The notes beneath the pieces are model-generated. The model had not been told where the DNA came from. It worked only from the letters and a program-made list of their open reading frames with translations, and searched no databases. From assembly GCA_044892505.1 (NCBI GenBank), contig CM097883.1:421600001-421664000 (forward strand): DNA of 64,000 bases, given 5' to 3'. The DNA is from Schmidtea nova (lineage: Eukaryota). Shown here piece after piece: positions 12,744-59,424 of this stretch (position 1 is the stretch's first letter; every line of letters starts with the position of its first letter). The position numbers and the translations under genes were made by a program.

Positions 12744-12915
12744 ACCTTCCACATTTGACCATGAAGACTCCACTTTCCAGCACCGAGAACGAAACTTTTC
12801 CATTCGCTCTGTCATAACTTTCCTTTTCCATTTCTGCGACGCAAGATGTTAGATGACACATGCTCCGATTCATTTTGGTCAGTTGGATGATCATTTTATC
12901 TATTTTGCTTACAAT
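12744..12915 (-). pseudogene. Partial copy of coiled-coil ORF family A
   Basis: KIDKMIIQLTKMNRSMCHLTSCVAEMEKE..MTERMEKFRSRCWKVESSWSNVEG matches the ORFs at 36356 and 58203. Confidence 0.8.
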
Positions 12916-28810: not shown

Positions 28811-29640
28811 TTACACACACAGGCACCCCAACTGTCCCAACATAAATCGGTGACTCTCTCGGGCTCTACAGTATATCTTTTAAGCGACAAGCATTTACGA
28901 ACAAACATTGAATAAACAACCTACGTTAAATAACAAACATTTATCAGCCAACTTTAAAGAACTAAATATAATAAATATAAAAAACCCAAACACCCAACAA
29001 CAACATTGAATACACCCATACTCAAGAAAACATCAATTATTACTTCAACCCAAATGCAGACACAGATAGTGCAAACTCAATAAATTTAGTCCTCAATCCC
29101 AAGGCAAATATCCCAAACTTTTTCACAGACGAGAATGGGACGCCACAGAAATGGCTAGAATTTGCAAAATTAACGTTAAGCCTATCAGGCATAAAATCAT
29201 CTAAAACCGTCTGCTCACACATAATCGCCGCTCTCCCCAGCAACATACTAAATGAGAAAGCAGATCGAATAGGCGATATTTCTATAGACGACAACCCTTT
29301 CCAAAACCTATACAAATACGTTAATAAACAGAAATAAAGTCAACAGGCGGGAACTTCTTGAATCTTGACTTAAAGATATTCAACTGGGCAACGATAAACC
29401 GTCTGAATTCCTAAGAAGCCTAAAAACAAAACTTGAATATCTTCAGCACAAGATAACAAGTACAGGTTCAAAAGAATTCATTAAAGACCTGTTTATGCGT
29501 GCAATGCCCCAGAAATACGACGTATTTTAGCTGTCAGCAATTGCACAGACCTGAAAACCCTGGAAAACAGCCGACAAAATTAATGATGAAATATATCCAC
29601 AAATATGTAGGACATAAAAAAAATAGAATCCACAACATCA
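28811..29640 (+). mobile_element. gag: CsRn1-like Gypsy fragment: LTR core plus degenerate gag, PBS missing
   Basis: LTR core at 28822-28866. NIPNFFTDENGTPQKWLEFAKLTLSLSGI..QLGNDKPSEFLRSLK is homologous to 41093. No TGGTGTCAGAAG in this copy. Confidence 0.8.
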
Positions 29641-29646
29641 AAAAAT

Positions 29647-30400
29647 TTGTTTGCCAATATTAATAAAGAAATGGAAGAAAACCAGAAAATAAACAGTTCA
29701 AACCCAGAAAATTATTTATCGGAAGAAGGAAAAGAAGTAGTAAAAATCAATATGCAGTCGAATGAAAATGGGAAACCAGCAACTAGCCATTTCGGAGAAA
29801 AGTTTCATGGAGAACCATTCAATGGTGAAGTGAATAGATTGTGGGTGTTTCTGAAAGAACTTTAAATATATATATATATCGATTTACCGTTGGTCAAATG
29901 AAGCTATACGAGAACGAATGCCGTTATATTTGAGAGGAAGTGCACAAGATGCGTATATAGAAGCCAAAAAAGATAATGAAAAATTAAAATCATGGAATGA
30001 AATTATGGAATTTTTAATGAAAAACTTTGGAGTGGCCGAGGGAGAGAATCGGAAGATGTTAGATTTTCTCCATAGGAAACAGAAATACGAGGAATTGAAT
30101 GCGGGATTCGCATGCGAAATAAGACGTATGGCAAGGGAAGTTTTCGGTGAGGAGAAAGTGAAAGACGAAATATTAGTAGGAGTATTCCTGAGTGGACCTT
30201 AGTGTGAACCTTAGATGTCAAACATCAAAGACATTAAAAGAGTCATTAACTATGGCAAATCGATGCGAAATGTACATGGAACAACCAGTAAAAGTTGCAA
30301 AACAACCAACAGAATCAAAAATGATGACAAAAGATACAGTCACCAAAGAAATTCACGATAAAGATGTGAAGTATGTAAAAAATGGGGACACGTGAACAAT
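29647..30400 (+). pseudogene. gag: Gypsy Gag capsid region, frameshifted
   Basis: EPFNGEVNRLWVFLKEL..YRWSNEAIRERMPLYLRGSAQDAY..RKQKYEE..FACEIRRMAREVF. Shares the PLYLxGxAxDA motif with Gag 6036-7352. Confidence 0.85.
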
Positions 30401-31462
30401 GAGTGCTACCGAAAGAAAACATGTCGAATTTGTGGGAAAAAGGGTCATATTAAAAATCAATGCAGGAAAAAGGGGGAAAAGTATCATGTAAACAACAATA
30501 ACGAGAATGATAGTGATAGTGAGAGATATCATTGCTTTAAATGTAAGCAACTGGGACATATTGCGAAAAGTTGTCCAAAGCTAAAAGGACTCAATGCAGC
30601 TCCAACAAAAGAAATCCACATGATGAGAGAATTGACATTATTCAAGAAACTGATAAACCAGATAATAGTGAATAGTTCACAAGAGCCAAAGATCAACGTG
30701 TCACAGACTAAGGGTCCTAAAACGTCAAGATTTAATGAAAGTCAAGTGAAACAACAAGTTCAGTGGCGAAGGCCTCAAATAAAAGAAGCACAAGAAATGG
30801 ATGAAAAACGGAAAAATAGAGAAAACAACACCGGACAAATTAATATGATGAAAATGAATGACGAAGAAAAGTCAACCAAGCAAGGAATAGCTCATTACAA
30901 GAAAGAACTCCAAAAGAATATCGAGGGAAGAGTAACCGAAATGATAACCGAATTATCAGATGTTGAAATCGACATAAAAGAAAAAGAATTTGAAATTTCA
31001 ATAAAAACAATGGAGGAAGAAGAAAAGAAGTTTGTCAAGAAATACAATCAAAAAAGAAGAGAAATAAGAAGCGATGATGATACCCTCAACATAGACGAGA
31101 AGTTGGATGAATCTGCACAAATTAAATTAGAAGTGTCACAAAGATTGATAATCATTATTATAGAAGAAGTGACGAAAATGAATGAGAAATCGGAAGAAAA
31201 GAAGAAACCAACCAAGTCCGAAAGATCAGAACAAACAGAGACATTAGAGACCGAACAACTAATCAGTTGTCTAAGCAATGGTGTGGAAAATCAATGTGAG
31301 ACAACAACTGAACTACTAAGATGGGTTATCAAAAATAGTGCAAATATATCAAAAATGAGATTGATAGTGAAAGAGATCGAGAAATGCAGACGTTTATGCC
31401 CTTGGTATTCAACACAATTCGATGCCATTATGAGAAAATGGAGAACTAGAAAAAACAAGTGA
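30392..31462 (+). pseudogene. Gag C-terminal region with CCHC zinc knuckles and long coiled coil
   Basis: CRICGKKGHIKNQC and CFKCKQLGHIAKSC, followed by E/K-rich heptad sequence. Confidence 0.85.
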
Positions 31463-31789
31463 TGATCCGCAGACGTGTCGATTGAAGATACAGTTTCCGA
31501 ATCTGGAAAAGATGGAGATGGATGTATTATTAACAACAAAGATCAAAGAGATAAAAGAGAGATTACCATTCGAATTACCATTTCACTTGAAATACGATAA
31601 AGAACCGCTTGATGATGACATAGAAATCGGTATAACACCGATACAAATCCGAACAAGTAATACGTTAACTGTTGATAAAGTTGCAGGGAGCGAGTGGATC
31701 AGAAAAATGAAGAACGAAGATAATCCAAAAACAACAACAATTGCAATGATGAAAACTCCAGCTGGAAAAACACTATTATTTAATTAAAC

Positions 31790-32105
31790 ACTTTTATTTA
31801 ATGGCGTAAAAATAGACGCAATGATAGATACTGGCGAAAATATATCAGCAATAGATATGAATATGATACCAGAAATATTATGGTCATGCATTGAAAAAAC
31901 ATCAATGGACGTGATAACATGCAGCAAAGAATCTGTTAATATCGTTGGAAAGATATGGACTGATATCGAATACGAAGATGTAAAAATATCTACTTATTTT
32001 ACAGTAATAAAAAATTGGGTGCGTCATGCATTATTGGAACAGATTTAATACCAAAACTGTTAAAAGGAGCTATAATCGATTTGGATACGATGAAGCTGAA
32101 ATATA
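31790..32105 (+). pseudogene. Retropepsin-type aspartic protease, frameshifted
   Basis: GVKIDAMIDTGENISAID..VNIVGKIWTDIEYEDVKISTYFTVIK, then in a shifted frame CIIGTDLI. Confidence 0.9.
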
Positions 32106-32497
32106 AAATCGAAGGGAGTTGTGCAAGAGAAACAACAATAGAACAATCAAACCAAGAAATGACCCAAAAAGGACAAGTTTGTATGTTCCGAGAGAATGCA
32201 AATGACGACTGGCTACATCGTATATTAACCACATCCAGGAAAACAAATCAACCAACAACAATCTCTGTACAACCTAAGATAGCTGGTGTTATAAATATGG
32301 AGCACCGTAAAAAGATGGAGTTAATCATTGAAATTACCAAAGAAATCACGCCAGAATCGTCGAAAAACAAAGATATATTCGAATTATTAGGTGTAAACCT
32401 AATGGTCGAGGAATATGCTAAAGGAAATGAAACGACCGGAGTAATGATCACCATAAAAGAAAGATTACCAATATTATTCACAATCACCAGCTTCAAG

Positions 32498-32885
32498 GAT
32501 GAGATACCGTTGTATCACGCGATAAAAAGCGGAAATGAAAAAAGAATGTTTGAAATAATAAAACTTATGGAGAAATGTAAACAGCATACCAACACGAAAA
32601 ACTGGAAAGATCAAAAACCCTTAATGATAGCAATTGAAAAAGGTGAATCCGAGAAATTCATAGCAAAACTAATGAGAACTGGATCAAGTTTTAAAGAAAG
32701 AGATGATAAAAATGAAACGGTGTTATCATATGCAGTGCGAGCAAATAACCATCAAATAATCAAATATATTATGTCAAATGCCACAGAAGAAGATATTGAA
32801 GTACTCATTTCAGATCCAAATCCACTAGTAAACGCAGTGAATAAAGATTCAGACGAAACAACTGCCAAAATGATTAAATGGTTAC
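32498..32885 (+). pseudogene. Three to four ankyrin repeats in frame after the protease
   Basis: EIPLYHAIKSGN.., QKPLMIAIEKGESEKFIAKLMRTGSSFKERDDKN, ETVLSYAVRANNHQIIKYIM, PNPLVNAVNKD. Confidence 0.85.
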
Positions 32886-33492
32886 ATCCAGTTACGCACG
32901 AAGGAGTGATAAATGTCAATGACAGATTCGAAGATGGTGAAAATATAATAATGAAAAGAACCATGAAAAGAAAATGGATAAAACGATTAAAGCATTGCTG
33001 CAAAGACCTGATTTCAGATTTACAAACAACAAAAAAGAAAAAGAAAGAATTGGATCTAAAAGACATGAATTATATCAGCAAGTTATCATATGGAAAGAAA
33101 ATATAAAAGAAAGCAAAATTCACCGAAGCTGGAACAATGCCAAAGATGAAATAACCAAGAGAGAAAATATAAAAGCCGAAGCAGATGAAATAGCCAAAAG
33201 ATATGAGGAAATAATAAAATTAATAAATGTCGAGGACGACATTTTAAACAGAACCTAGGGTGGTTCTGATGATCACAACAAGCCTGATGATGAAGATGAA
33301 GAGAATAATAACAACAAAGTAAAGAAAGATGACAATGAAAATTCTAACAGAAACAATGACAAAGATGAGAAAGATGATGGAAAAAGCATTAACGATGAAA
33401 ATGGGAACGAAAGTGATGAACATAGACAAGAAACTTCAAATTATGAGAAACGAACAGTATGTCTACATAAAACTCGAATAAAAGATATAATA

Positions 33493-33825
33493 TTGCTGAT
33501 ATTGATGCAGTCAGCATTGAAAGGAACGGAAGCTGATGACAAAAGAAAACCAGTACAAATATTAATACAAGGAGCAGATAATGAAGAAGCATGTTGGAGT
33601 CACGTCAAATTGCAAACAAAGGGAGATAATCTAGTCAAATGTCAACGAGCAGAAGGAGAACTCCGAATAAATGGATTAAAGCGAGATACAAAATACAAAA
33701 TCTGTGTCTACAAAAAGAAAACAGCACAAAAAACGTTTAGAACAGTCGTATGTCAGATAGTAGCACATAATGGTTCAAAAGTCACCCAAGAAAACGTAAG
33801 TCATATTAACCGACGAGCCAGATGA
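33493..33825 (+). pseudogene. Possible fibronectin type III-like domain
   Basis: GELRINGLKRDTKYKICVY resembles the FN3 E-F strand motif (LxGLxPxTxYxVxV). Confidence 0.5.
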
Positions 33826-34717
33826 GAGCATCAGAGTGTCGTCAAAACGCAAGTTGCCGGAGTAACAAGTGGAAGAAACAGTGTAAATAGTGCATAAAAT
33901 TATATTGTATTGTAAAAGTATAAAATATTTTTGTGTGTAATAAAAATTTAAAAAATCAAAAAAAAATGAATACCTCAAAAACAGGGGAAAACAAATGATA
34001 ACATTGTGTAATTATTAGCAGAAATGAATCCGAAAAACGAGAATCAAACCTATCAAACATCAGTTCCGACGTTCAATGAAACATCAAATCAAATTCCATT
34101 TCCAGAAGATACAAGTGTGCAAGAAAGAGAAGGGTCACTGCAAACCCCATTAATTGAAAACGAAACGCAAAATCCAACAATTGACGATAGAAATCTGATA
34201 TATCAAGTTGAAATTCCACTATTTGATGAAACAATGAACCCAATACAAACGACATTCGTATTAAATCAACAATCAACAAATAGCCAGACTCAATCAACAT
34301 CAACTCCGATAATCTATCAATAGACAATGACGCAAGAGTTATCATGGAAAACGCAATGTGAATTATTAAGTAGAATGTTGAATCAAGCTTATGCACAATG
34401 GAGAAATGAACAAGCCTTGTTAACCGAAAGTGTAAACAGAAATTTATTATATCTAGCAAAAATAGAAGAACAACAGCAATTGATAATCAAAAAAGATCAG
34501 AGGTACGAATGGTTAACAAGAAACGCAGAGTAGCAAACAAATGAAATAAGAAGATTAAATGAAACGCGAGAAGAATTCAGAGCATGGTATAATTGGTTAG
34601 ACAATTTTCCAGAACACCGACAAATTAATCAAGCAATTAACCCAAACCCTCCAATCGTCATCAACAAATGCAAAAAACTCAAGAAACTTAAGACATATCT
34701 ATCGAGTCCATTATAAC

Positions 34718-35119
34718 TTGTATCAGCAGATCTCCGAAGCAGAAAACCAAATCGTAAAACATCTGGAAAAGGATCATCGAGAAAACCTTATACTTGTGAA
34801 CAAAATTTACGACCGTATAAATGAGAAGCCAAAAACTGAGAACAACCAAAACAATGACAATTGTAAAATATCCCTTTTATCATCTGAACCAATCCTGGAT
34901 ATTTCTCTGATGATCCTTGATATTGCTTTGATAATTGCAATCGGTGGTGTGATATGGCGAGGCCTAATTGATAGACAATTGATAATCAGTCAAAACAAAA
35001 TAACCTCTGAACAATCCGAAGGTAAAGATGATAGTGAACAACCAATAAATGCAATTTCAAACAATGAATCAACCAAATCACCCCAGTCGAAGATCCAACC
35101 AACTCAGTCCAAAAGTTAA
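34718..35119 (+). CDS. Small single-pass membrane protein-like accessory ORF
   Basis: Hydrophobic stretch ILDISLMILDIALIIAIGGVIW followed by R. The start is a TTG in the ORF track, so it may be the tail of a longer broken ORF. Confidence 0.5.
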   Translation: MYQQISEAENQIVKHLEKDHRENLILVNKIYDRINEKPKTENNQNNDNCKISLLSSEPILDISLMILDIALIIAIGGVIWRGLIDRQLIISQNKITSEQSEGKDDSEQPINAISNNESTKSPQSKIQPTQSKS

Positions 35120-35449
35120 AATTATAAACTTTATAAACTTGATAAACCTTGATCAGGGTCGCTGTAGACTCATATCGAACTTTGACTATGCCGCTGCAGG
35201 CACATACTTTATTTTACATTACATATTTTAGTTGTTTTTTTTTGCATGCGAGTCAATGTAGACTCATATTGATGTATATGTATTAACTTTTTATTATTTT
35301 TTATTACTTTTTATTTTTACTGTCGCGAACAGCATGATCACGACCAAGTAGCTCGTGTATAATGTACAACCTTTTGACCTTTAATTAGTCTTGATTCTTA
35401 ACCCCTCTGAGGAATTGCGGGACGCAATTTTGCGGGCCCCCGAGTGTTT

Positions 35450-36050
35450 TATGTTGGTCAAAAACTGATATTTGTTTAAATAGCGCGATATTATAATATT
35501 TAGAGAGCGCGCGAGGAAGTAGATTTGAAATTCTATGAACCCAAAACACCAAATACAACCTAGTAGCAGTAGAACACATGAAATAGTTGATTACAACACC
35601 TTGAAGAATTGAAACGAACAAAATAAGTGTATACCTGAAAAACACCTGTATAGTGTGAGAACATCAATTGTGTAATAGAATAGCACACTGGAAAAAATAA
35701 ACATCTTTTCGGGAGGAAATTTTCAAATTTTAGTATAGAAATTCAAAAAATATGAAAGAAAATTGTTTTAGTTTGAAATTGCGATAAATTAATTAAATTA
35801 GGAAAAACTTTGATTTTAAAATGCAATTTTAGATCAAAAATAAATTATTTAGGAGTTATTTAAAATTTTATGCAAAAATAATAATCCAATTTTCCGTAAA
35901 ATTATTGATATTAATTTCCAAGAATCGAAAAAAATCTTTCTAGAACAATTTGTTTTAATACACCACTGAAAATAATAGGCGAAAACAACTATATATAAAC
36001 CGCCATCAAAATGGATTTCTTCAGAATTTGCAACTACCAACTTGGTGAAA
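35450..36050 (+). repeat. Dispersed non-coding repeat, second copy at ~46600-47200
   Basis: Shared blocks TCAAAAACTGATA.TTGTTT, AGAGAGCGCGC, AAATTCTATGA.C.AAAACACCAA and TTCTAGAACAATTTGTTTTA. Confidence 0.8.
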
Positions 36051-36355
36051 TATCAGGAGGCTAATCTCTGTTTAAAAATTTTTAATACGATCATAGAATC
36101 AATCCCTAATTTTTAAGAATCAGGAAACGGACTCTGCTTGTCGCAAGTAGAAACATCAATAATCAATCTATCTAAGAAAGATCCCACAAATTTTCTGCCA
36201 GAAGCCTCGAAGGATCCAATAAAAATCAGCCGATATTTATTTAATACAGGCGGACCCTGCACGAAAATTTACTAAGTATCAATTCTGAGAAGGGAGACAG
36301 TTCAAGGAGATCTTTTGCCAAACAGAGAATATACGTTGTTAACTCCAATAAAACA

Positions 36356-36931
36356 ATGGAAGCAAAAATGGAAGCAAAAATGGACCAGGTACTGGAACAG
36401 CTGGCCGGAATCCACCGAAATATACGCCATCTAACTGCCTGCGTATTCGAGATGGAGGAGGAGAAGCTGTTGTACGCCGAGCTCCGAGGAACGACGGAGC
36501 GAATGGAGAAATTCCGTTCTCGGTGCTGAAAGGTGGAGTCCACTTGGACGAATGTGGATGGCACCGAGAAGATGCGGAAACAAATCCGGCTATTACAGGG
36601 TCAAGCGGCCAAGGATGTGCTCCAACTGCGGGACGTAAAAGTGCAATTAAGGCAACGAGACGCCGAAGTAGCGTAATTGCAAATCGACGCCGGTATCGTG
36701 GCATCGGTTTTTCCAAAGAGTGAATGTGCGAGCTTATAATTGTTCCCCGCTCGGGCAAACGGGAATGTTCAGCCTCAAGAAGCAGCGGTCAAACTTCCAA
36801 TCGATCGGCCGAAGAAATGGCGTCCAAGTAAAGGAGTTCGGGCCCGTAGAAAGCGGCGCCAAGAAGCTCGACTCCTCGGACAGCTACGAAAACTTTCCGT
36901 GGAAACAATCGATTTATCAATTGGAGAGTGA
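36356..36931 (+). pseudogene. Coiled-coil ORF family A (191 codons, three in-frame stops)
   Basis: MEAKMEAKMDQVLEQL..TERMEKFRSRC*KVESTWTNVDGTEKMRKQIRLL..KGVRARRKRRQEARLL. Confidence 0.8.
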
Positions 36932-37297
36932 TAATTTGGACTAATGATACATTCAATGTATATATATGTGCACTTTTATTTTCGTTATGTACATAGTATG
37001 TGTTTTGTTGTTTGTTAATTATATGTATTTTACTCTAATAATTTATTGAAATGAATACGATAATTGATGACATGGTTTGCTTGAGAATATTAAATGAAAA
37101 ATCAACGAATTACGAAAATAATAGAATCCATAAAAACATTTATACCCATTACGTTCAATCGAACCGTTCAATGATAAGTGGTCATCAACTTTTGAAATCA
37201 ATTACGGCGATCTGAATTTGCCTTCTTGTATTAATCGTAGTAGATCCCCGCATTAGATCAATGGTTAATGTTAAAAAGGGACAAAACGGGCATTAAA

Positions 37298-37423
37298 CCT
37301 TCTATCGGTAGCCCTTGTACCCAGGAGTTATTCGGTCAATCATAGTTTCGAATTTTTCGACGCTCACTGATTGCGAATACCCACCCATTTGTTGCATTAC
37401 CAACGTTACATTGTGACGGGCAA
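37298..37423 (+). ncRNA. Candidate structured RNA motif, copy 3
   Basis: TATTCG-GT-CAATCA-T-AGT-T-TCGA[ATTTT]TCGA-C-GCT-CAC-TGATTG-CGAATA. Confidence 0.55.
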
Positions 37424-38736
37424 CAAGATGGTTAATCTAATATTTTGTATGTTGAATTGTTGATGTAAGCCATAGCAATGTCAATGTTATATTGACGATC
37501 AACAACCCACCAATCTTAACACTTCTAACCATAAGGATTTTGGCACCGCGATGTAAAGATAGCTTCGGTCTTCTTAATGAATTCATTAGCACGATATTTA
37601 CTTTAGAAACTTAAAACATGTAATAAGAAAATACTCGAGTGCTTTTCTATGTTTTTATGATATATTACATTTTATTTTTAAGTATAAATAGAACACAATA
37701 ATATTGTACACGTATAATAATGTTTTTATAAATCAAAAATATGAAAGAATGCCAAATGCAAATGAATCAGAATAAATAAGAAAAAATAGAGTTAATTTAA
37801 AGCGAATATTACCATGAGTAGACTTGTCAATAAACAACATGAAATTTATAAATTCATAAAAGTAATATTGATGGACTTCGCACATATCACCCCGATGCAA
37901 TGCATACTCTTGCTAACCGCGTAGAGCCCCTTGGAGATGTTAATTTATTAGCAAGTGAAGGCATGAATTGTTATTGAATGAACTAAAAGATTTAAAAACT
38001 GAAATTAGTTCCAAATATTTAAATGCTTCAGTAATTCGAATTCGTGAACGACAAGTTAGATTGATATCCTTTTTCCTATATTTGTAAAATTCAGAAAACT
38101 TTTCAAAGAAATTTAATGTACTGCAATGAGTTTTAAAAATCAATATAACTGTTATGAAAAAAATATTGTTAAGAATATATCCAAATTCTTGTATGGAAAG
38201 GAAAAACGATTCAAATGATCAATATATCGGAAACGCTGATACTAACAATCGGGAAAATGCTCTAAAAGAAACCATGGAAAAATCAAATTTTATAAGTTTC
38301 TTGAGAAATCAAAAGAAATAATATATCTAGGGCGAATTTTCCATATCGAAAGGGAACCTATTATAGGTTGTAATTTTATTAGTTTGTGTTATTTAATGGG
38401 TATATTGTTGTGTACTGGGAAATTACTGAAGGGCCCAAAAGAGTCTCCCAGAACTTATTGTGGGGACGTTAATGTTGTACAATTCTATTGTTTTGATTAC
38501 GATTATTATTAGTATTGTCATTTTTATTAATGATATTATCTTTATTGTTGTTATTATTAATATTGTCACCGCTTAGATAATTGCCGACACCGGGAATCCC
38601 CCTTTTTATTATTGTGTATATGACGGCAATGATATCTTGAAATAATAATAAAGTCAAATAAAAATTTAAATTATGAAAATTAAAAAGAAGTCAATAGCCC
38701 TTGGCAATAATGAAATAAATGAATAATAGAAATTAA

Positions 38737-39981
38737 GGATCAGGGAAAAAATGCCATATGGCATTTTTTTCCCTGTTGACACATAATTTAATAAAATTAA
38801 TAAAATTAATAAAATATACTAAATTAATAAAATTAATTAAAGAAACTAATTTAATAAACTTATATAATTATACTTTATAAAATTGAAATAATATACCATA
38901 TAAAATGACTACTGAAGAAATTGAAGAATCGCTTTTTACAATGACAGATAAGGAACTGAATGATTATTTGTTTGCACAAGGACTACTCGTGCGTGAAAGG
39001 CGTTGTGTTGGATCGTGTAACTATCCAATGAAATATGAAAGTTGCGACAACTACGTAGATTCATATGCTTGGCGATGTTACTCCAAAGACTGTAATAAGA
39101 GATACAATCGCGTCTCTATACGGGACGGGTCCTTCTTTGATGATATTGGAAAGGATATTAGGAAAGTTATTAGGGTGATTTTAAAATGGTGTACAAACGT
39201 TTCTCAAGCGTCTACCTTGCAGTCTGTTTCGGTTTCAAAACCAACATACCGCAAGATAATTTCAACAATAATAATAAGAATGAGAGAAGACAACGAAAGA
39301 GCACCAAAGTTAGGAGGACCCGGAAACATTGTTCAAATAGATTAAACAATGTTAAATTATAAGTGCAAAAGTCATCGTGGGAGATCTCCTACAAATAGAA
39401 CGGACGCCTTGTGTATTGTTGAGTGTGCACCACAAATAACAAAGGTGTGGGCTGAGATAATTCCAAACAAACAAGCTAACACCCTAATGCCAATAATCTG
39501 TGAACACGTCATCGGTGGATCTATCATTCACACAGATGAACACCGTTCATAAAATTCACTAGTAAAAAATGGCTTTTCCCATCGTTCAGTTTGTCATAAA
39601 TATATGTTTGTCAACCACGAAAATGATGTTCATACTCAACATGTTGAGTCGTTCAATAATTGCATTAAAAACGAAATTAAGAAAAGAAAAGGCGTGTTAA
39701 CAAACAAGATAGCTGATTTTCTTACTGAATTTATATGGAGATTGAACAATAAAGATAACCTGATACAAGCTGTAATGAATTTAATTAAAATCGAATAAAA
39801 ATTATTTTATATTTTTGTTATATTTTCAAACATGTACTCTTTTTAGGTTAATAATATTTAATTAATAATTGTTTTAATAAATATTATTTTTCTAGTTTTA
39901 ATTATTAATTTATTTTTAATTCTTAAATTTCTGGCATTTTTTTCCCTGTATACGTTTTTGGCTTCTTATTTTCGCTGATCC
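38737..39981 (+). mobile_element. Merlin (IS1595/ISXO2-like) DNA transposon, 1245 bp, inserted in the LTR
   Basis: TIRs GGATCAG(G/C)GAAAA and 8-bp TSD GAAATTAA/GAAATAAA. Transposase 38905-39798 is in one frame with two nonsense codons (QID*TM, HTDEHRS*, QHVESF). Confidence 0.95.
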
Positions 39982-41092
39982 GAAATAAACAAATATTAAG
40001 AAGACGAAAAATAACCATAGAAAATGGAGAATTGATTTTTTCATATAAAAATTAAAATGAGATTTTATGCCTAAAGAAGATTACACTAAATATTAATTAA
40101 GCAAACGAATTTATGAACCAAGATTTCCAACCGATAACACAAGAAGTCATTAAAGGAAGAATAATTGGGAAATTCTGGAAGTATTTAGACTATATAAGTG
40201 TTTACGTGAGAACCGATTAACATTTACTGTTTATTTGTGTTTTATAGATAATGAATTTTATAAAAATTATTTATTCTAGTTTAGTTGTTAGTTTGTTGTA
40301 AGCACACACCTACAAGCACTTACACAAATATATAAGCACACACCCCGACTGTCCATTGGTAGCAGAGCGTGGTTCCCTTCGGGGGGCCACGCACGGCGGG
40401 TAAGCTTCTTGATTGCTTATATCGGTCACAGCGCCGCATTATATTCTAAAATGTTTAAAATTTTAAAATTAATAATAAATTTAATGGGGGGATTTAGCGC
40501 TGTAATGGGCCCCAGCGACCATCCCCTTCCCTTAAGCTCAGTTGGGTCTGAGAATGAAAATTGGTCACCTGAAAGTAACTTGAAAGATGTTATTAAGCTT
40601 GATAGTAGCGGTATTGATACATCAAGCATTCTCTTTATTGAAAGACTTAATGATACTCTTGATAATCCCACAAAACTTACATGGGGTTATGATAGCGATG
40701 AAAAGCAAACTTTACATAAAGAATTTAATAAAACTAAAAGTAAAAAAAGTGACTCTCTCGGGCTCTTCAAGATCTTCCTGATATAAAGCAATAGTTTACA
40801 AACAATCATTTAATATCAAACTGTCACAAACGTTCACAAACAAACATAAAATAAACCTCCATAAACATAATAACTGGTGTCAGAAGCAAAGAAACACAAC
40901 ACACTCGACGAAATTTTTTTTTCAAATCACCTTTTCCTTTTAGAATAGTTATTATAGAACTATAAAGGAAGGTGAGATCTTTTGACCGAACACAGAAGGT
41001 CATATTCTTTTAATAAACTCTATTTTAATTACAAAATAAGCAAAGGATAAAACAAGAAAATAAACAATTTTAACAGCATAAAAACTAACACT

Positions 41093-42900
41093 ATGAATAA
41101 CCCCATCCCAAACTTTTTTATGAATGAAAATGGCTCTATTCACGCATGGTTGAAAGTAGCCAATCTGACATTATCCTTAAGTGGAATAACCTCACCAAAA
41201 CTGATATGCTCGAAAATTTTAACGGCAATTCCAAGTCATATCCGCATTGAATTAGCCGATCAAATAGATGAAATTTTCAATAACAACAACCCTTTTGAAA
41301 AACTATGCGGCATATTAGCAAATAGGGATGAAAAAAATAGAAAACAAGTACAAGAAACTTTCCCAAATAACAGGTAAATAAATAATACCCAAAATAATAT
41401 CACAAAACCCCAAAAACAGAATTTGGAGTACGTCGAAGCAAAAATAGCAAACTTTGACTTAAATGAGCGAAGTACAGTGCAAAAGCCAGAAACTAAAAAT
41501 AACGAAACAGAAAATAAAATGCTGACAGGCATGGTCGATAAAATAAATGCAGGAACTTACCCCAGCATTAATAGTACTCATGACTACAAAAACAAAATAC
41601 TTAACCATGAACAAGAGGAGGAAGAAAACGAAAGAACAGAATTTACCGAAACAAACAAAATTTTTAGTAATTTAATAAGTCAACTAGACAAAATAGCAAC
41701 TGAAAACAAAAGGTTCAAATTAGAACTAAATGAAATTAAAGAAAAGAACTTAAAACCAAATTACTGTCCAAATCAAACAGCGTATAAGCTCAATAGGCCA
41801 AAACCAAACTCAGGAAATCAACACCAAAACTTTTACAACTATGAAAACAAAGAATATGGAAATAGACAAAAATTCTGGAAACCAGAAACCAGATTATCAA
41901 ACCAAGAATGGTGTTACTTCCATAGCAAATTTGGAGAAAAGGCATTCAAATGCACAAAACCATGCAGATACAACGAAAAAAACGCAGAAAAATTGAAAAG
42001 TTTACCAGCAGTTGCTCCTACATTTGGCGAAACAAGTAAAGAAAAACTGAAAACGTTAGCAGTAGTAGCACCTACATTCGACAATAAACATACAACTTTT
42101 TTAGTATGTTCAAATAAAATAGAATTCCTAGTGGACACAGGTTCAGTGATATCGCTTTTACCTCATATTTCGTACAAAAATACAAAAAATCAAAGCAAAC
42201 TACTAACGGCAGCCAATGGATCTAACATAAAAACTTTTGGTGAACAAGATATAACCCGAACAATAAACAACAAAACTTACAAGTGGACATTCACGATAGC
42301 CGAATAACAACAAGCAATAATAGGAGCAGATTTCCTATCAAAATACAATTTTCTGGTCGACTGCAAAAACAAAAGACTTATAGAAAATTCACACACAACA
42401 AATATACAACACGTCATGATATGTGAAACCAAGCCGAAGATGGACATAGGCGTTGTTTCAATAAAAAATGAAAATAAAGTTTTTTTCCAACAAAACAAAA
42501 CAACCCCAGAAATAAACACACTACTGGAGAAAGCCGACAAACTTATCACACCAGCAACTTTCGACGAGAAAGCAAACATAAAAAACAACAAACAAATAAA
42601 TAAACAAATAACAACTAAAACAGTGAGAACATCGAAAACAAATTAAAAGGAATATTAAAAAAGAGACAAAGCTCAGAGAACAATGACAAAATAATACTAA
42701 CAACCGATTACTTACTAATAAAGAAGCCATACACAAAGGTTCCGAAGACAAATACGAAGGCCCATTCAAAATACTCGAAATCAACAAAAACGTGGCCACA
42801 ATAATAAAAAACAACAACAAAATAAGAATAAATATACGCAGAACGAAGCCATACCACCACAATCAACAACTTCCATGCAACCCTTCACACAACGAAACCC
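41093..42900 (+). pseudogene. gag-protease fused to an integrase C-terminal remnant
   Basis: ORFs 41093-41377 and 41423-42307, then IIGADFLSKYNFLVDCKNKRL, then after about 42530 the GPF integrase tail. Confidence 0.85.
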
Positions 42901-45900: not shown

Positions 45901-48449
45901 TAGGGGTATCGATAGAAAAGAGACATCTCTAAAGAGTGCACACAATATGATAGCAGGTTGAATTTTTCATAAAAAGGACAATATAAAAGTAAAATGGAAA
46001 GATCATTGCTAGCATAAAAAATATGAAAACGATGATCGAAGAAAAAATTGTGAAATATAAAGAGAATAATTTATTAAAAATTAGTAAAAATCCATATTGA
46101 AATATCATTAAAATAATAGAGATAGAACGAAAATTGTATTTTGAATAAATTGGACTGTTTTATTCGAATAACTTATGCGCACAGAATTGTACCATGATGA
46201 ATGCATATGAAATTTCAATGAATTAATAGAAAATAATATAAAAATTAACTTTTTCGAGAGAAAAAATGATTCGTTTTAGCGAGTAAGCAATAATCTGTAA
46301 AAGGTTTTTAATTAATTTACGTTGTGTACAGAGTATGCGGGAGTAACATTGAAAAACAATATAAATAAGGCGCTGAAAATTATTATTTCAACTTCTAACT
46401 TCATACTTGTTAGCCAATTTATTTTCATTTTTGCGCAAATTTTCAGTTAATTATATTGTTTTGATACTATTGAGTGATATTATCATAAACGATATTTTTT
46501 GAAAAAGATTTTTATTGTGTTCATTTTCAATATACTTTTCAATAGTGTACTCCTATATTTTTCTCAATTATACCGAATCACAGTCTAGTATTTACACCCA
46601 CTTGTTGTTCAAAAACTGATAATTGTTTGAATGAAGCGGTAACATAGCATGTAGAGAGCGCGCAAGAACTAAATATAAAATTCTATGAGCTAAAACACCA
46701 AGTAAAACATAATAATCACAAAACACCGAAATAATCAAATAAAACACGTATAAAAATTAAAATGAACAAATGCGCATAGAATATACAAGTAAAAAACACA
46801 TATATAACATAAAAACATCAATTATGGAATAAAATTACAAATTAAGAAAAATTAACATATTTTTAGAAGGAGAATTTCGATTTTTATCTTGTAAATTCAT
46901 AAAATATGAAAGAAAATTGGTTTAGATAAAAATTTAGTAAATTAAACTAAATTATAAAAAAACTTTAATTCAAAAGTAAAATTTTGGATTAAAATAAATT
47001 ATTTAAAGTTTTATAAAATTTTATGCAAAAATAACTAATTTGATTTTGCGTAAAATTATAAAAGTTAATTTTGGAAAATTCGAAAATTCCTTCTAGAACA
47101 ATTTGTTTTACTATATCAATGAAAACAACACACAGAACATCATATATATATACCGCCTTCAAAATAGAATTCGCCAGGATTTGCTAAAGAATTTAATGGT
47201 TAAATTACCGACTCTTGCAGACAACTTAAGAATTTTCCACTGGTTATTGAAATTACAGAGATCTAACAAGATTTGAAATCTGCCAAGCCGAATTTAAGGA
47301 TATGGTGAAGGTCATATCCCTTTTAAATTATGAAAAATGACAGGCAATATTTTGAGTATCTACCTAGACTAATTGCAAGAACACAAAACAGCCCCAAAAT
47401 TTCATCAACAATTGCAAAACACATTTTCATGATACCTTTCAAACTCTCGAATATAAAAATGACAAAATTGGTTCATCAATATTACAATCCAAGGATATAA
47501 AGTCCATTCCAAAGATGTTATGACACCGATTTCGAGAATAGATGGTACCAGGTTAGCGTAGATTTCCGTAGATTAGTATAGAGTTATATTTTAATAATTA
47601 TTGATAATCGAGTTTTGACTTTTTTAAAGTTTTTGTGGTTTTGAATTTTTGAAAATGTTTGTACTTTTGGAATTTTTTAAAAAGTATTTTAAATTTTTAA
47701 ATTATTTAAAAGATTTGTCTTAAAAAAATTTAAGTTTTACCTAAAATGATCTTGACCTTTAACCTTAAAATAAAATTTTAGTATTACGGTATCGGTTATG
47801 TCAACGAATATTTAATAACAAACTATTTGATAACGTCATCAATGGCATAATAATTTTTATCTGGGGGTCTAAAAAATAGATGACTTGCTCCATTCACATT
47901 GGCCGACTCATCGATGACGACTTTTTGTTTATTGTATAGTTCACATAACTAGCTACTATCTGTTAGTTTTTTAAATTCCGTATATAAATGATATTCAAAA
48001 TAAACAAAAATGAATTAAATTTAAAATAAGTTTAATTAATTTAATACGATTATTTAATAATAAAAAACAATGTTAACATATTCTTTTTTGGAACCTGTTA
48101 CATTTAAGTAATGCATTTACAATATCCAAGTAAGAAAAATTGACGATATCGATATAAGAAATATATCAGAAATTTTGCTGATAATCAATAAAGAAATTCA
48201 ATCTAACGAAAATTTTACTTATATGAATTGCAATAAAGATTGCAATTTAGAAAATCTTGATGATATACAAAATAAAGGATTTAAAGAATCTAATGATATT
48301 GTGAAATCAGTTTGGAAGATAATAGATACAAACATTTGTGATTAAATAAAAAATTATTTTTCGTATTCTGTCCTTATTTTTTTAATTATTTGTGTGTGTA
48401 GATTATTTTAAAAAAATATTGAACTGTTAAAAGTTTTATTATCAAGTAA

Positions 48450-58745: not shown

Positions 58746-59085
58746 TAAGATTGTGATTATTACTGTAAATTACTGTATATCTTTATGTTTTAATTATACG
58801 CATTGTATTAGCTTAGTTTATTTGAAAGTATGAATGGATTGATTGCCTGATACTGAAGTTTGATTGAAACAATAACGAGAGAAAATTCGTAAATGACTGG
58901 AACCTCCGTCTAACAATGAGCCAATTTCTCTAAAATTTCCTTTAAATTATTTGTCTTAGTAAGGACATAATATAGATTATGAGGTAAATTATCGTGACGT
59001 GATTATTCATTTAAACTGTCGCTTGAAACTTTAACGAATATTTATAAAATAATTGTTGAATAAGGGACTCAAAATTGGCAATAAT

Positions 59086-59225
59086 CCTTCTATCGGTAGC
59101 CCTTGAACCCACTGTGATGTTCAGTCAATCATAGTTTCGATTTTTCGACGCTCATTGTTGTATTACCACGATTTGTTGCATTACCACCATTTGTTGCATT
59201 ACCAACTTCACATTGTGACGGGCAA
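59086..59225 (+). ncRNA. Candidate structured RNA motif, copy 4 (partly decayed, short internal duplication)
   Basis: CAATCA-T-AGT-T-TCGA[TTTT]TCGA-C-GCT-CAT. Confidence 0.45.
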
Positions 59226-59424
59226 CAAAATGATTAAGCTAATGTTCTATGTGTTGAGTTGTTGATGGGATTCATAACAACGTCAAGGTCATATTGACAG
59301 TCAACAATCCACCAAAATTAGAGAATTTAGGATATTTTGTAAATTATCATTCGAAGGATAACAATCAAATTTAACAATGGTTAGATAGGGACCGAACACC
59401 GAAAATACTAAAAACGAGCACATA

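Follow-up and report, generated by a model that had tools for sequence, protein, structure and literature searches.

Domain order of the element in the window

What is an ankyrin-repeat domain doing directly behind the protease of a Gypsy-like retroelement, and where has the rest of pol gone? The question is posed by a locus on the forward strand of a 64,000-nucleotide stretch of Schmidtea nova DNA (the window), where Pfam and translation bear out the order of Gag, zinc knuckles, protease (PR) and ankyrin repeats (ANK) given in an initial annotation. The residue numbers below are those of the polyprotein of an autonomous element found in the same genome, here called the helper. The Gag N-terminus and capsid domain (29611..30202) is broken over two frames and corresponds to helper residues 56-245, with 38-68% identity by tblastn; on the window frames the Pfam match to Retrotrans_gag (E 0.0012 at 29855-30199) lies below the cut-off. 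Behind it come three CCHC zinc knuckles of a nucleocapsid (30362..30580), seen in translation and matched by zf-CCHC (E 6.5e-8), a coiled-coil region (30581..31252) that matches the helper up to residue ~671, and a helical segment with a SUMO/ubiquitin-like domain (31229..31715; residues 1423-1585, 42-64%), the SUMO-like assignment being weak (Rad60-SLD, E 0.038, from an unbroken copy).

The aspartic protease (31701..32110; residues 2731-2865, 55-61%) has its DTG at 31827-31835 and is broken by one stop and one frameshift, with a Pfam aspartyl protease match of E 0.006-0.07. A junction at 32105..32240 keeps the last residues from behind the integrase (IN) and a motif, QVCMF here and QICML in the helper, that is a putative protease site. 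The ankyrin-repeat domain and its helical tail follow (32290..33255; residues ~3940-4280, 43%), with a frameshift near 32965 and Ank_2 matches in three stretches (E 2.1e-16, 31964-33103), and the C-terminal half of the protease shares one open frame with the repeats. An N/D-rich linker (33259..33460), also present in the helper, leads to a short hydrophobic signal-like stretch, which does not pass the hydropathy threshold, and to one FN3-like domain (33461..33798) assigned from a structure model.

The FN3-like domain, claimed from the outset, has moderate support. The predicted structure of 33535-33798 (pLDDT 67) has fibronectin-III domains as its top four fold matches (Z 8.3-7.8), but Pfam gives no FN3 match in the window and Foldseek no match to the model at E<=0.001; in another copy fn3 is matched at E 0.0098. 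Natural copies free of breaks encode PR, ANK, linker and FN3 together in a single ORF of 1,053 aa.

Further downstream lie a broken Q/T-rich and coiled-coil accessory ORF (34012..34615; ~215 aa in other copies) and the C-terminal portion of the final accessory ORF (34613..35119), of a signal-coiled coil-TM type that measures 270 aa in other copies; the membrane-spanning ORF reported earlier is thus found, its TM segment lying near 34892-34942 with a hydropathy of 2.6. By comparison with copy F, ~6.9 kb is missing after 34615, comprising TRAF, IAP, two coiled-coil ORFs and one signal-CC-TM ORF. A 3' untranslated region (35120..35451), 88-90% identical over its last 300 nt to the helper and other pol-less copies, and a 3' LTR with TG...CA ends (35452..37512), an old 2.06-kb variant, had been overlooked. 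This LTR, the only one left, is 87.5% identical to the helper LTR over its last 240 nt and about 64% over its first 620 nt. The element belongs to a large pol-less family, of which it is a 5'-truncated and decayed copy; the decay was recognised at the start from the stops and frameshifts that are indeed present.

Origin from an autonomous Burro-type element

The parentage of these modules is made clear by the helper, an autonomous Burro-type Gypsy element of 27-30 kb with a 4-bp target-site duplication in three of four copies. Its 4,993-aa polyprotein contains Gag, three knuckles, MATH, env, PR, reverse transcriptase (RT), RNaseH, IN, ANK, linker, FN3-like repeats and TM, where the env between Gag and PR is PF24664 (E 6e-70) and the FN3-like repeats of the tail number four, beside a TM anchor. 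Its dUTPase-like and BCL2-like regions gave no Pfam match, and these labels rest on a review description and on position. Burro, or GYPSM1, denotes giant planarian Gypsy LTR retrotransposons (Jurka 2007; Grohme et al. 2018; PMC6431247 section 7) with a described polyprotein of 4,873-5,140 aa (PMC6431247), and the helper, matched by description, fits this architecture in its length and in the place of its env. A Bcl-2 family search turned up another autonomous family (3,068-aa ORF, 13.5 kb, without ankyrin), which is not the parent, and a dUTPase family search one locus only.

The window copy is colinear with the helper polyprotein at 33-68% amino-acid identity, with three blocks absent: residues ~670-1422, including MATH; residues ~1585-2730, with the env fusion glycoprotein and, by position, the BCL2-like region; and residues ~2865-3883, with RT, RNaseH and IN. 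The initial annotation saw no YxDD or integrase motif between 29.6 and 35.4 kb, and tblastn with the helper polyprotein finds none of these three enzymes in the window. The proposal that pol had been replaced by captured ankyrin and FN3 cargo does not hold, the ANK-linker-FN3 of the window being the tail that stands behind the integrase in the helper (38% over 614 columns, E 3e-120): RT, RNaseH and IN have been lost, and the protease therefore abuts its native ANK-FN3 tail. On this evidence the pol-less family is evidently derived from a Burro-type giant Gypsy retrotransposon by in-frame deletion of modules, and the divergence of its coding remnants from the helper (dS 1.3-1.6) makes it old. 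A mere deletion derivative, with other copies carrying a normal pol, had been named as the outcome that would undo the idea of a separate lineage; since ANK, linker and FN3 are native behind IN, that description applies to the origin of the family, but the relatives examined carry no normal pol.

Copies of the pol-less family

The PR-ANK junction marks a family. As uncurated first-look candidates it has 1,168 copies, against 274 for the matching junction of the helper, a ratio of about 4:1, and all 40 scored matches of the junction search span it, which upholds a non-autonomous lineage over a chance fusion or misassembly. Eight full copies with paired LTRs measure 23-28 kb, with LTRs of 3.6-5.4 kb that end in TG..CA. 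These integrated recently: the LTR pairs are 99.8-100% identical and a 4-bp target-site duplication is present in seven of the eight. None of the eight contains pol. None of the open frames that hold the 150 best protease matches exceeds 1,080 aa; PR directly precedes ANK at 17 of 20 BIR-anchored loci, with pol at none; and among 20 further gag-bearing relatives PR is present in eight, with ANK next in all eight and helper-type pol in none. Between 66% and 100% the gag search returned no autonomous family, only 22 pol-less or truncated matches, followed by a family at 65-66%. The family has also lost the env that the helper possesses, and capsid and knuckles are also missing from a young subfamily, such that the epithet 'capsid-forming' is apt for older copies like that of the window but not for the young ones.

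The cis signals remain close to those of the helper, with 93-96% identity in the LTR, 90% in the leader and 97% in the 3' untranslated region (copy D, which did not align, being left out of the last comparison) and the same primer-site region. Within one young copy the contrast is sharp: copy B is 96% identical to the helper over the first 620 nt of the LTR, but 73% in PR and 66% in ANK, whereas against older pol-less copies it is 80-82% in the LTR and 94-97% in PR/ANK. Helper-like LTRs on old coding remnants point to LTR swapping with the helper as the likely source of the LTRs of young copies. Copy D has a helper-like FN3 array (71-72%, versus about 45% elsewhere).

Accessory ORFs

Full copies possess ORFs that the helper lacks, namely TRAF, BIR-RING IAP, neurexin-like LamG-EGF-TM, coiled-coil and TM ORFs, the roles of which are read from domain names only. 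TRAF-MATH (E 7e-22) and BIR (E 2.5e-15) are separate downstream ORFs; both are deleted from the window copy, where the added downstream cargo is mostly gone. BIR candidates number 1,295, and 17 of 20 sampled belong to the pol-less family. The LamG ORF, present in full copies and not in the window, was judged against neurexin/CASPR/Crumbs-like membrane proteins with a LamG-EGF-LamG ectodomain; it has a feature score of 0.95 to LamG+EGF clusters (Atlas), a profile match to neurexin-1alpha that spans about 75 positions (E 7e-8), a TM segment, weak Pfam matches and a predicted structure with pLDDT 38. A host-paralogue search for it was swamped by element copies (103 scored of 408), homologue searches for it and for longer forms of ORF1 gave no match, and a representative-sequence search gave five unnamed relatives. 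The element also occurs in four sets of contigs of unknown kind from one study, some with transposase adapter ends, where no GT-AG joint was among the 15 of 30 joints listed.

Purifying selection

Are these ORFs more than remnants? Variants common to several of 57 copies (N 301, S 306) give a pN/pS of 0.24 with an excess at third positions (164/123/324), against a neutral baseline of 0.5-0.8 and controls of 0.77 and 1.02 in shifted frames and 0.46-0.63 in the non-coding leader; the copies were drawn by best-score searches, with a bias to intact ones, and singletons give 0.4-0.6. Within ORF1 the shared values are 0.11 for ANK and 0.18 for PR, and the 36 young copies alone, which are at least 95% alike and for which the nearest autonomous relative found is 65-75% alike, give 0.25 overall and 0.09 for ANK. 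Stops are absent among 423 variants common to at least three copies versus 45 among 841 singletons, and DTG is invariant in all 53-54 copies with sequence there. The cargo ORFs follow suit (TRAF 0.20, IAP 0.20, LamG 0.26, CC527 0.06, TM275 0.09). No clear constraint is seen in signal+FN3 (0.49, p=0.86) or the last TM ORF (0.54, p=0.12, 9 copies), nor any above singletons in the junction segment (0.51, p=1.0). PR, ANK and most accessory ORFs are thus constrained at the amino-acid level and, with PR, ANK and cell-survival-like genes under purifying selection, the family likely contributes proteins rather than being a mere passenger.

It is plausible that, as first suggested, the protease of the element itself releases ANK: every copy with sequence at that place retains DTG, and the IN/ANK motif is retained, although 13 of 54 copies have Y or F in place of its Cys; the protease-site motifs were chosen after viewing the sequence, on Gypsy cleavage patterns.

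A proposed partnership and its alternatives

How, then, might such copies be propagated? Probably the pol-less family is copied by RT, integrase and capsid borrowed from the helper of the same genome, and in return would contribute the protease, ankyrin and accessory proteins that it encodes. In this scheme pol-less RNA would be co-packaged in helper particles, where template switching would renew LTR, primer site and leader. Once translated, the CC-SUMO-PR-ANK-FN3 protein would be processed at the retained boundary motifs by the protease it contains, which would set ANK loose in the cytoplasm and uncover the signal-like stretch ahead of FN3. Selection would act at the level of the element: TRAF, IAP, RING and ANK may keep the transcribing cell alive or damp stress or immune signalling, LamG-EGF and other TM proteins may be placed on the cell or particle surface, and copies with working genes would leave more insertions. 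A fuller division of labour, in which capsid, envelope, RT and integrase come from the helper and its more numerous partner provides self-processed ankyrin, TRAF, IAP and neurexin-like surface proteins that protect or favour the stem cells where the two are replicated, is put forward tentatively.

The same trans-mobilisation would serve a defective-interfering element, in which PR, ANK and the coiled coils act on helper particles, in assembly, processing or RNA capture, and not on host survival. The numerical excess over the helper suits this reading, as do the facts that the helper-derived PR and ANK are the most constrained parts of ORF1 and that ORF1 is retained in copies differing in TRAF, IAP and LamG content; it is nevertheless unlikely, given that the TRAF, IAP and neurexin-like ORFs, which the helper lacks, are of a host-pathway kind and are likewise constrained. 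That the ORFs are inert, their constraint stemming from recombination with extinct autonomous sisters or from open-frame selection that stabilises the RNA, is improbable: recombination is evident in the LTR swap and the FN3 array of copy D, but the constraint bears on the amino-acid sequence (ANK 0.09-0.11), holds within the 36 young copies and extends to cargo ORFs without a helper counterpart, and in the gag search no autonomous family lay between 66% and 100%. There is only a slim chance that the constraint reflects use of some copies by the host in the role of TRAF/IAP-like genes; an expansion of planarian TRAF/MATH transcripts, with good expression, has been reported (PMC6109357), but the constrained variants are common to many recent insertions, as in a transposing lineage, and old single copies such as that of the window decay. 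Capture of a host gene of ANKFN1/FANK1 type in place of pol can practically be dismissed, for although ankyrin repeats and FN3-like domains occur together directly behind PR, as they do together in those host proteins, the autonomous element has the same ANK-linker-FN3 behind its integrase and IN-region end residues survive at the junction, and with the modules traced to a retroelement polyprotein such an origin is not needed.

Relation to known elements and significance

As a rule, a non-autonomous LTR element is a pure parasite or retains nothing beyond Gag. RT, IN and env are gone from the pol-less family, as is Gag from its young copies, yet protease, ankyrin domain and several genes of apoptosis, signalling and adhesion type persist in it under purifying selection. 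Paired autonomous and non-autonomous LTR elements are described in plants, as RLG_Cereba and RLG_Quinta (PMC11302176) and, with LTR swapping, in soybean (Du et al. 2010). In common with Quinta, the soybean pair and LARDs, the planarian family is an old pol-less lineage, mobilised by a helper (as we infer from sequence), with shared cis signals, a retained ORF and LTR exchange. Quinta keeps Gag, whereas the young planarian subfamily is without it but has a protease, an ankyrin domain and as many as nine accessory ORFs, in animal elements of 23-28 kb. Replication-defective acutely transforming retroviruses depend on a helper, have lost replicative genes and carry signalling- or survival-type genes. 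The pol-less family resembles them in its loss of replicative genes, its survival-type genes and its presumed helper dependence; it differs in being endogenous and passed on vertically, in its stability over long divergence and in carrying multiple genes.

With Burro itself the family shares Gag with three CCHC knuckles, the SUMO-like domain, protease and ankyrin in one polyprotein, multi-kb LTRs and an association with MATH/TRAF and BIR modules. It differs in lacking RT, RNaseH, IN, env and the in-polyprotein MATH, with young copies also lacking Gag, and in having TRAF and BIR-RING as separate downstream ORFs, while the neurexin-like LamG-EGF-TM and other TM ORFs and the FN3-like tail go unmentioned in the review text on Burro (PMC6431247). 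That 2019 review leaves open the purpose of the Burro accessory domains, of which the pol-less family is a natural test because they are selected there without the enzymes. About a thousand intronless TRAF- and IAP-like ORFs could also be mistaken for host gene-family expansions. If the division of labour is true, the pol-less element would resemble a stable endogenous counterpart of the defective transforming retroviruses, and the TRAF/MATH expansion reported in planarians would in part be encoded by the element.

Domains and ends of the window copy

On the plus strand the window copy comprises a gag-like frame (29855-30199; Pfam, E 0.0012), three zinc knuckles (Pfam, E 6.5e-8), a coiled-coil stretch and an aspartic protease (PR; DTG at 31827-31835), the C-terminal half of which shares one frame with the ankyrin repeats (ANK; three Ank_2 stretches, Pfam, E 2.1e-16), followed by an N/D linker, an FN3-like domain, a broken Q/T-rich ORF, an ORF with a transmembrane (TM) segment, and the 3' UTR and 3' LTR (35452-37512) that form the element's end. 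The gag, knuckles, coiled coil, protease, ankyrin, linker and TM ORF of the initial annotation were all recovered by six-frame listing and Pfam. Its FN3-like motif is moderately supported: the structure predicted from an 11-sequence alignment (pLDDT 67) has fibronectin-III domains as best structural matches (Z 8.3, 8.0, 7.9 and 7.8), and Foldseek gave this model no significant E-value. The copy lacks a 5' LTR, a piece of an unrelated Gypsy gag lying upstream; it retains Gag, is without LamG and, relative to another pol-less copy (F), lacks ~6.9 kb after 34615.

Other elements lie nearby. Fragments belonging to an unrelated Gypsy family, whose gag is DUF7041-like, occur at 28981-29530, 41051-42307 and 1-441, one adjoining the truncated 5' end. 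Within the 3' LTR, a GC-richer (44%) stretch with short ORFs (36100-36950), a 69-nt piece of which recurs inverted at 12745-12813, may represent either inserted sequence or an old variant of the LTR. The start and end of more Burro-type LTR sequence, which resembles that of the element at 74-78%, are found at 46603-47184 and 59036-59315, and a broken IS1595/Merlin-type transposase (Pfam DDE_Tnp_IS1595, E 4e-6) at 38887-39798.

A pol-less family

Is the PR-ANK junction peculiar to this locus? A DNA query (31700-33100) against the same genome gave 2,428 first-look candidates, and all 40 scored matches (39 besides the window) span the junction at 87-91%, so it is not unique. Paired LTRs, which the initial annotation had proposed to seek genome-wide, are present in eight pol-less copies of the fetched regions (99.8-100% identical, total length 23-28 kb), seven with a 4-bp target duplication. 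Young copies have a single open 1,053-aa frame (ORF1) of coiled coil, SUMO-like domain, PR, ANK, linker and FN3, from which capsid and knuckles are gone, the ORF1 start joining straight to the coiled coil. The fullest order runs LTR, primer site, RING ORF, tandem repeat, Gag-knuckles, coiled coil-SUMO-PR-ANK-FN3, LamG-EGF-TM, Q/T ORF, TRAF, BIR-RING IAP, CC527, CC177 (coiled-coil ORFs), two signal-coiled coil-TM ORFs and LTR, where Gag-knuckles, LamG-EGF-TM and TRAF plus IAP vary between copies. The tandem repeat has a 21-nt unit in one pol-less copy (L036:2830-3420) and a longer one in the helper described below.

The autonomous parent and the origin of the junction

The 150 listed matches (of 151; 4,352 candidates) of a gag protein search divide into 22 at 72-100%, none in an open frame longer than 936 aa, and 128 at 65-66%, of which many occupy frames of ~4,993 aa. 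When fetched, four elements of the second group measured 26-30 kb, with LTR pairs 99.8-100% identical. The Pfam order of one such helper is Retrotrans_gag, zf-CCHC, MATH, viral fusion glycoprotein, protease, RT, RNaseH, integrase (IN) and Ank_2, behind which stand four FN3-like repeats and then TM. This agrees with the Burro/GYPSM1 architecture of PMC6431247 (section 7), in which ankyrin, SUMO-like, MATH, BIR and BCL2 modules are named, with an env between Gag and PR; the match by itself makes a planarian the likely host. BURRO1 of S. mediterranea is reported to be transcribed and PIWI-silenced. A second autonomous family (G000:C3:59830898-59844457, L072-L073; 13.5 kb, 1.1-kb LTRs, many intact copies) has a 3,068-aa ORF with Bcl-2-like, env-like, PR-RT-RH-IN, one FN3-like domain and TM, without ankyrin.

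By tblastn the helper polyprotein is colinear with the window apart from three gaps (aa ~670-1422, ~1585-2730 and ~2865-3883), the third of which removes RT, RNaseH and IN. Since residues just behind IN remain, ANK-linker-FN3 is native rather than captured at the junction; in an unbroken copy it matches the helper at 38% over 614 columns (E 3e-120). The proposed replacement of pol by ANK/FN3 cargo thus falls, this segment being the helper's own tail behind integrase, and by origin, though only by origin, the deletion-derivative alternative of the initial annotation holds, the family having arisen from a known giant retrotransposon by loss of parts. The original observation is confirmed and its interpretation supported in part.

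That the lineage is non-autonomous, as first suggested, holds: among 20 BIR-anchored loci, PR stands directly before ANK in 17 and pol occurs in none, and helper-type pol is absent from 20 further gag-bearing relatives. PR is present in eight of the latter, always with ANK next; ten end after Gag or coiled coil, two have larger deletions, and three carry unrelated RT/IN pieces at 28-37%. Of 6,656 protease-match candidates, the best 150 all sit in frames no longer than 1,080 aa. The best-scoring candidates of these protease, BIR-anchored and gag searches thus include no pol-bearing sister, although a rare one is possible. With equal-length junction queries the pol-less form had 1,168 candidates and the helper PR-end 274, a rough ratio of 4:1.

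Old core, fresh cis signals

Between a young pol-less copy and the helper, SUMO, PR and ANK differ at dS 1.25-1.59 (51-68% aa identity), whereas the RING ORF is 96% identical (dS 0.11), the first 620 nt of the LTR 96% and the last 300 nt of the 3' UTR 97%. This young copy and older pol-less copies, conversely, are just 80-82% alike in the LTR and 94-97% in PR plus ANK. Such discordance would be expected if LTR and leader had been exchanged with co-packaged helper RNA; swapping of LTRs between partner elements of this kind is known from soybean (Du et al. 2010, cited in PMC6894440). Pol-less copy D, with an FN3 array and TM 71-72% identical to the helper and ANK at ~45% (L044:7449-9855), has likely regained the full tail by recombination.

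In helper and pol-less copies (G000:C1:8015511-8015580, L112; L035:8850-8930) a primer-site-like sequence, which we take to resemble the 3' end of tRNA-Pro, begins 10 nt past the LTR's final CA. Ahead of the 3' LTR, in place of a clear purine tract, stands a short run of AT that roughly complements this spacer; spacer and AT run suggest unusual end processing.

Selection and cargo

Variants in 57 copies, sampled in favour of intact ones, were classed column by column, the counts being alleles rather than events on a tree. Shared ORF1 variants comprise 301 non-synonymous, 306 synonymous and 4 stops (pN/pS 0.24; ANK 0.11, PR 0.18), and 36 young copies alone give 0.25 (ANK 0.09), against 0.77 and 1.02 in shifted frames, 0.46-0.63 in the non-coding leader and 0.62, with 45 stops, for singletons. 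The DTG motif is unchanged in every one of the 53-54 copies that cover it. Accessory ORFs are likewise low: Q/T 0.16 (38 copies), TRAF 0.20 (24), IAP 0.20 (23), LamG 0.26 (22), CC527 0.06 (14), CC177 0.07 (15) and TM275 0.09 (15). The junction segment (0.51), signal plus FN3 (0.49) and the last TM ORF (0.54, 9 copies) show no clear constraint.

By Pfam a 492-aa ORF carries RING, TRAF zinc finger and MATH, and the IAP ORF carries BIR and RING; a 484-aa ORF is LamG-EGF-like by language-model features (0.95) and by a 6-sequence profile matching neurexin-1alpha (E 7e-8), its predicted structure being poor. None of the three was found in four helper copies at a 50% cut, and they may have been captured from the host or have come from an older Burro lineage. 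TRAF/MATH transcripts are reported as expanded in S. mediterranea (PMC6109357).

A satellite lineage

Recent integration without RT or IN, together with helper-like cis signals, leads us to infer with high confidence, from sequence comparison, that the helper mobilises the pol-less family in trans. Short motifs of the I-[CAN]-x-M/L type recur at helper boundaries (before and after PR, RH-IN, IN-ANK and before the FN3 signal), three with counterparts in the pol-less ORF; their reading as protease sites, chosen after the fact, draws on Gypsy protease cleavage patterns. The retained, putatively active protease would free ANK and FN3 at these candidate sites, and keeping it active makes sense if they must be freed. 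Selection on the TRAF, IAP, RING and ANK proteins might reflect protection of the transcribing cell, the favoured reading and the least certain step; that ORF products instead interfere with the helper ranks below it. No published account of Burro families without pol turned up in the literature search, though Grohme et al. 2018, its supplements or the Repbase report may mention such derivatives. A deletion derivative by origin, the family is nonetheless an old, active, selected and gene-rich satellite lineage.
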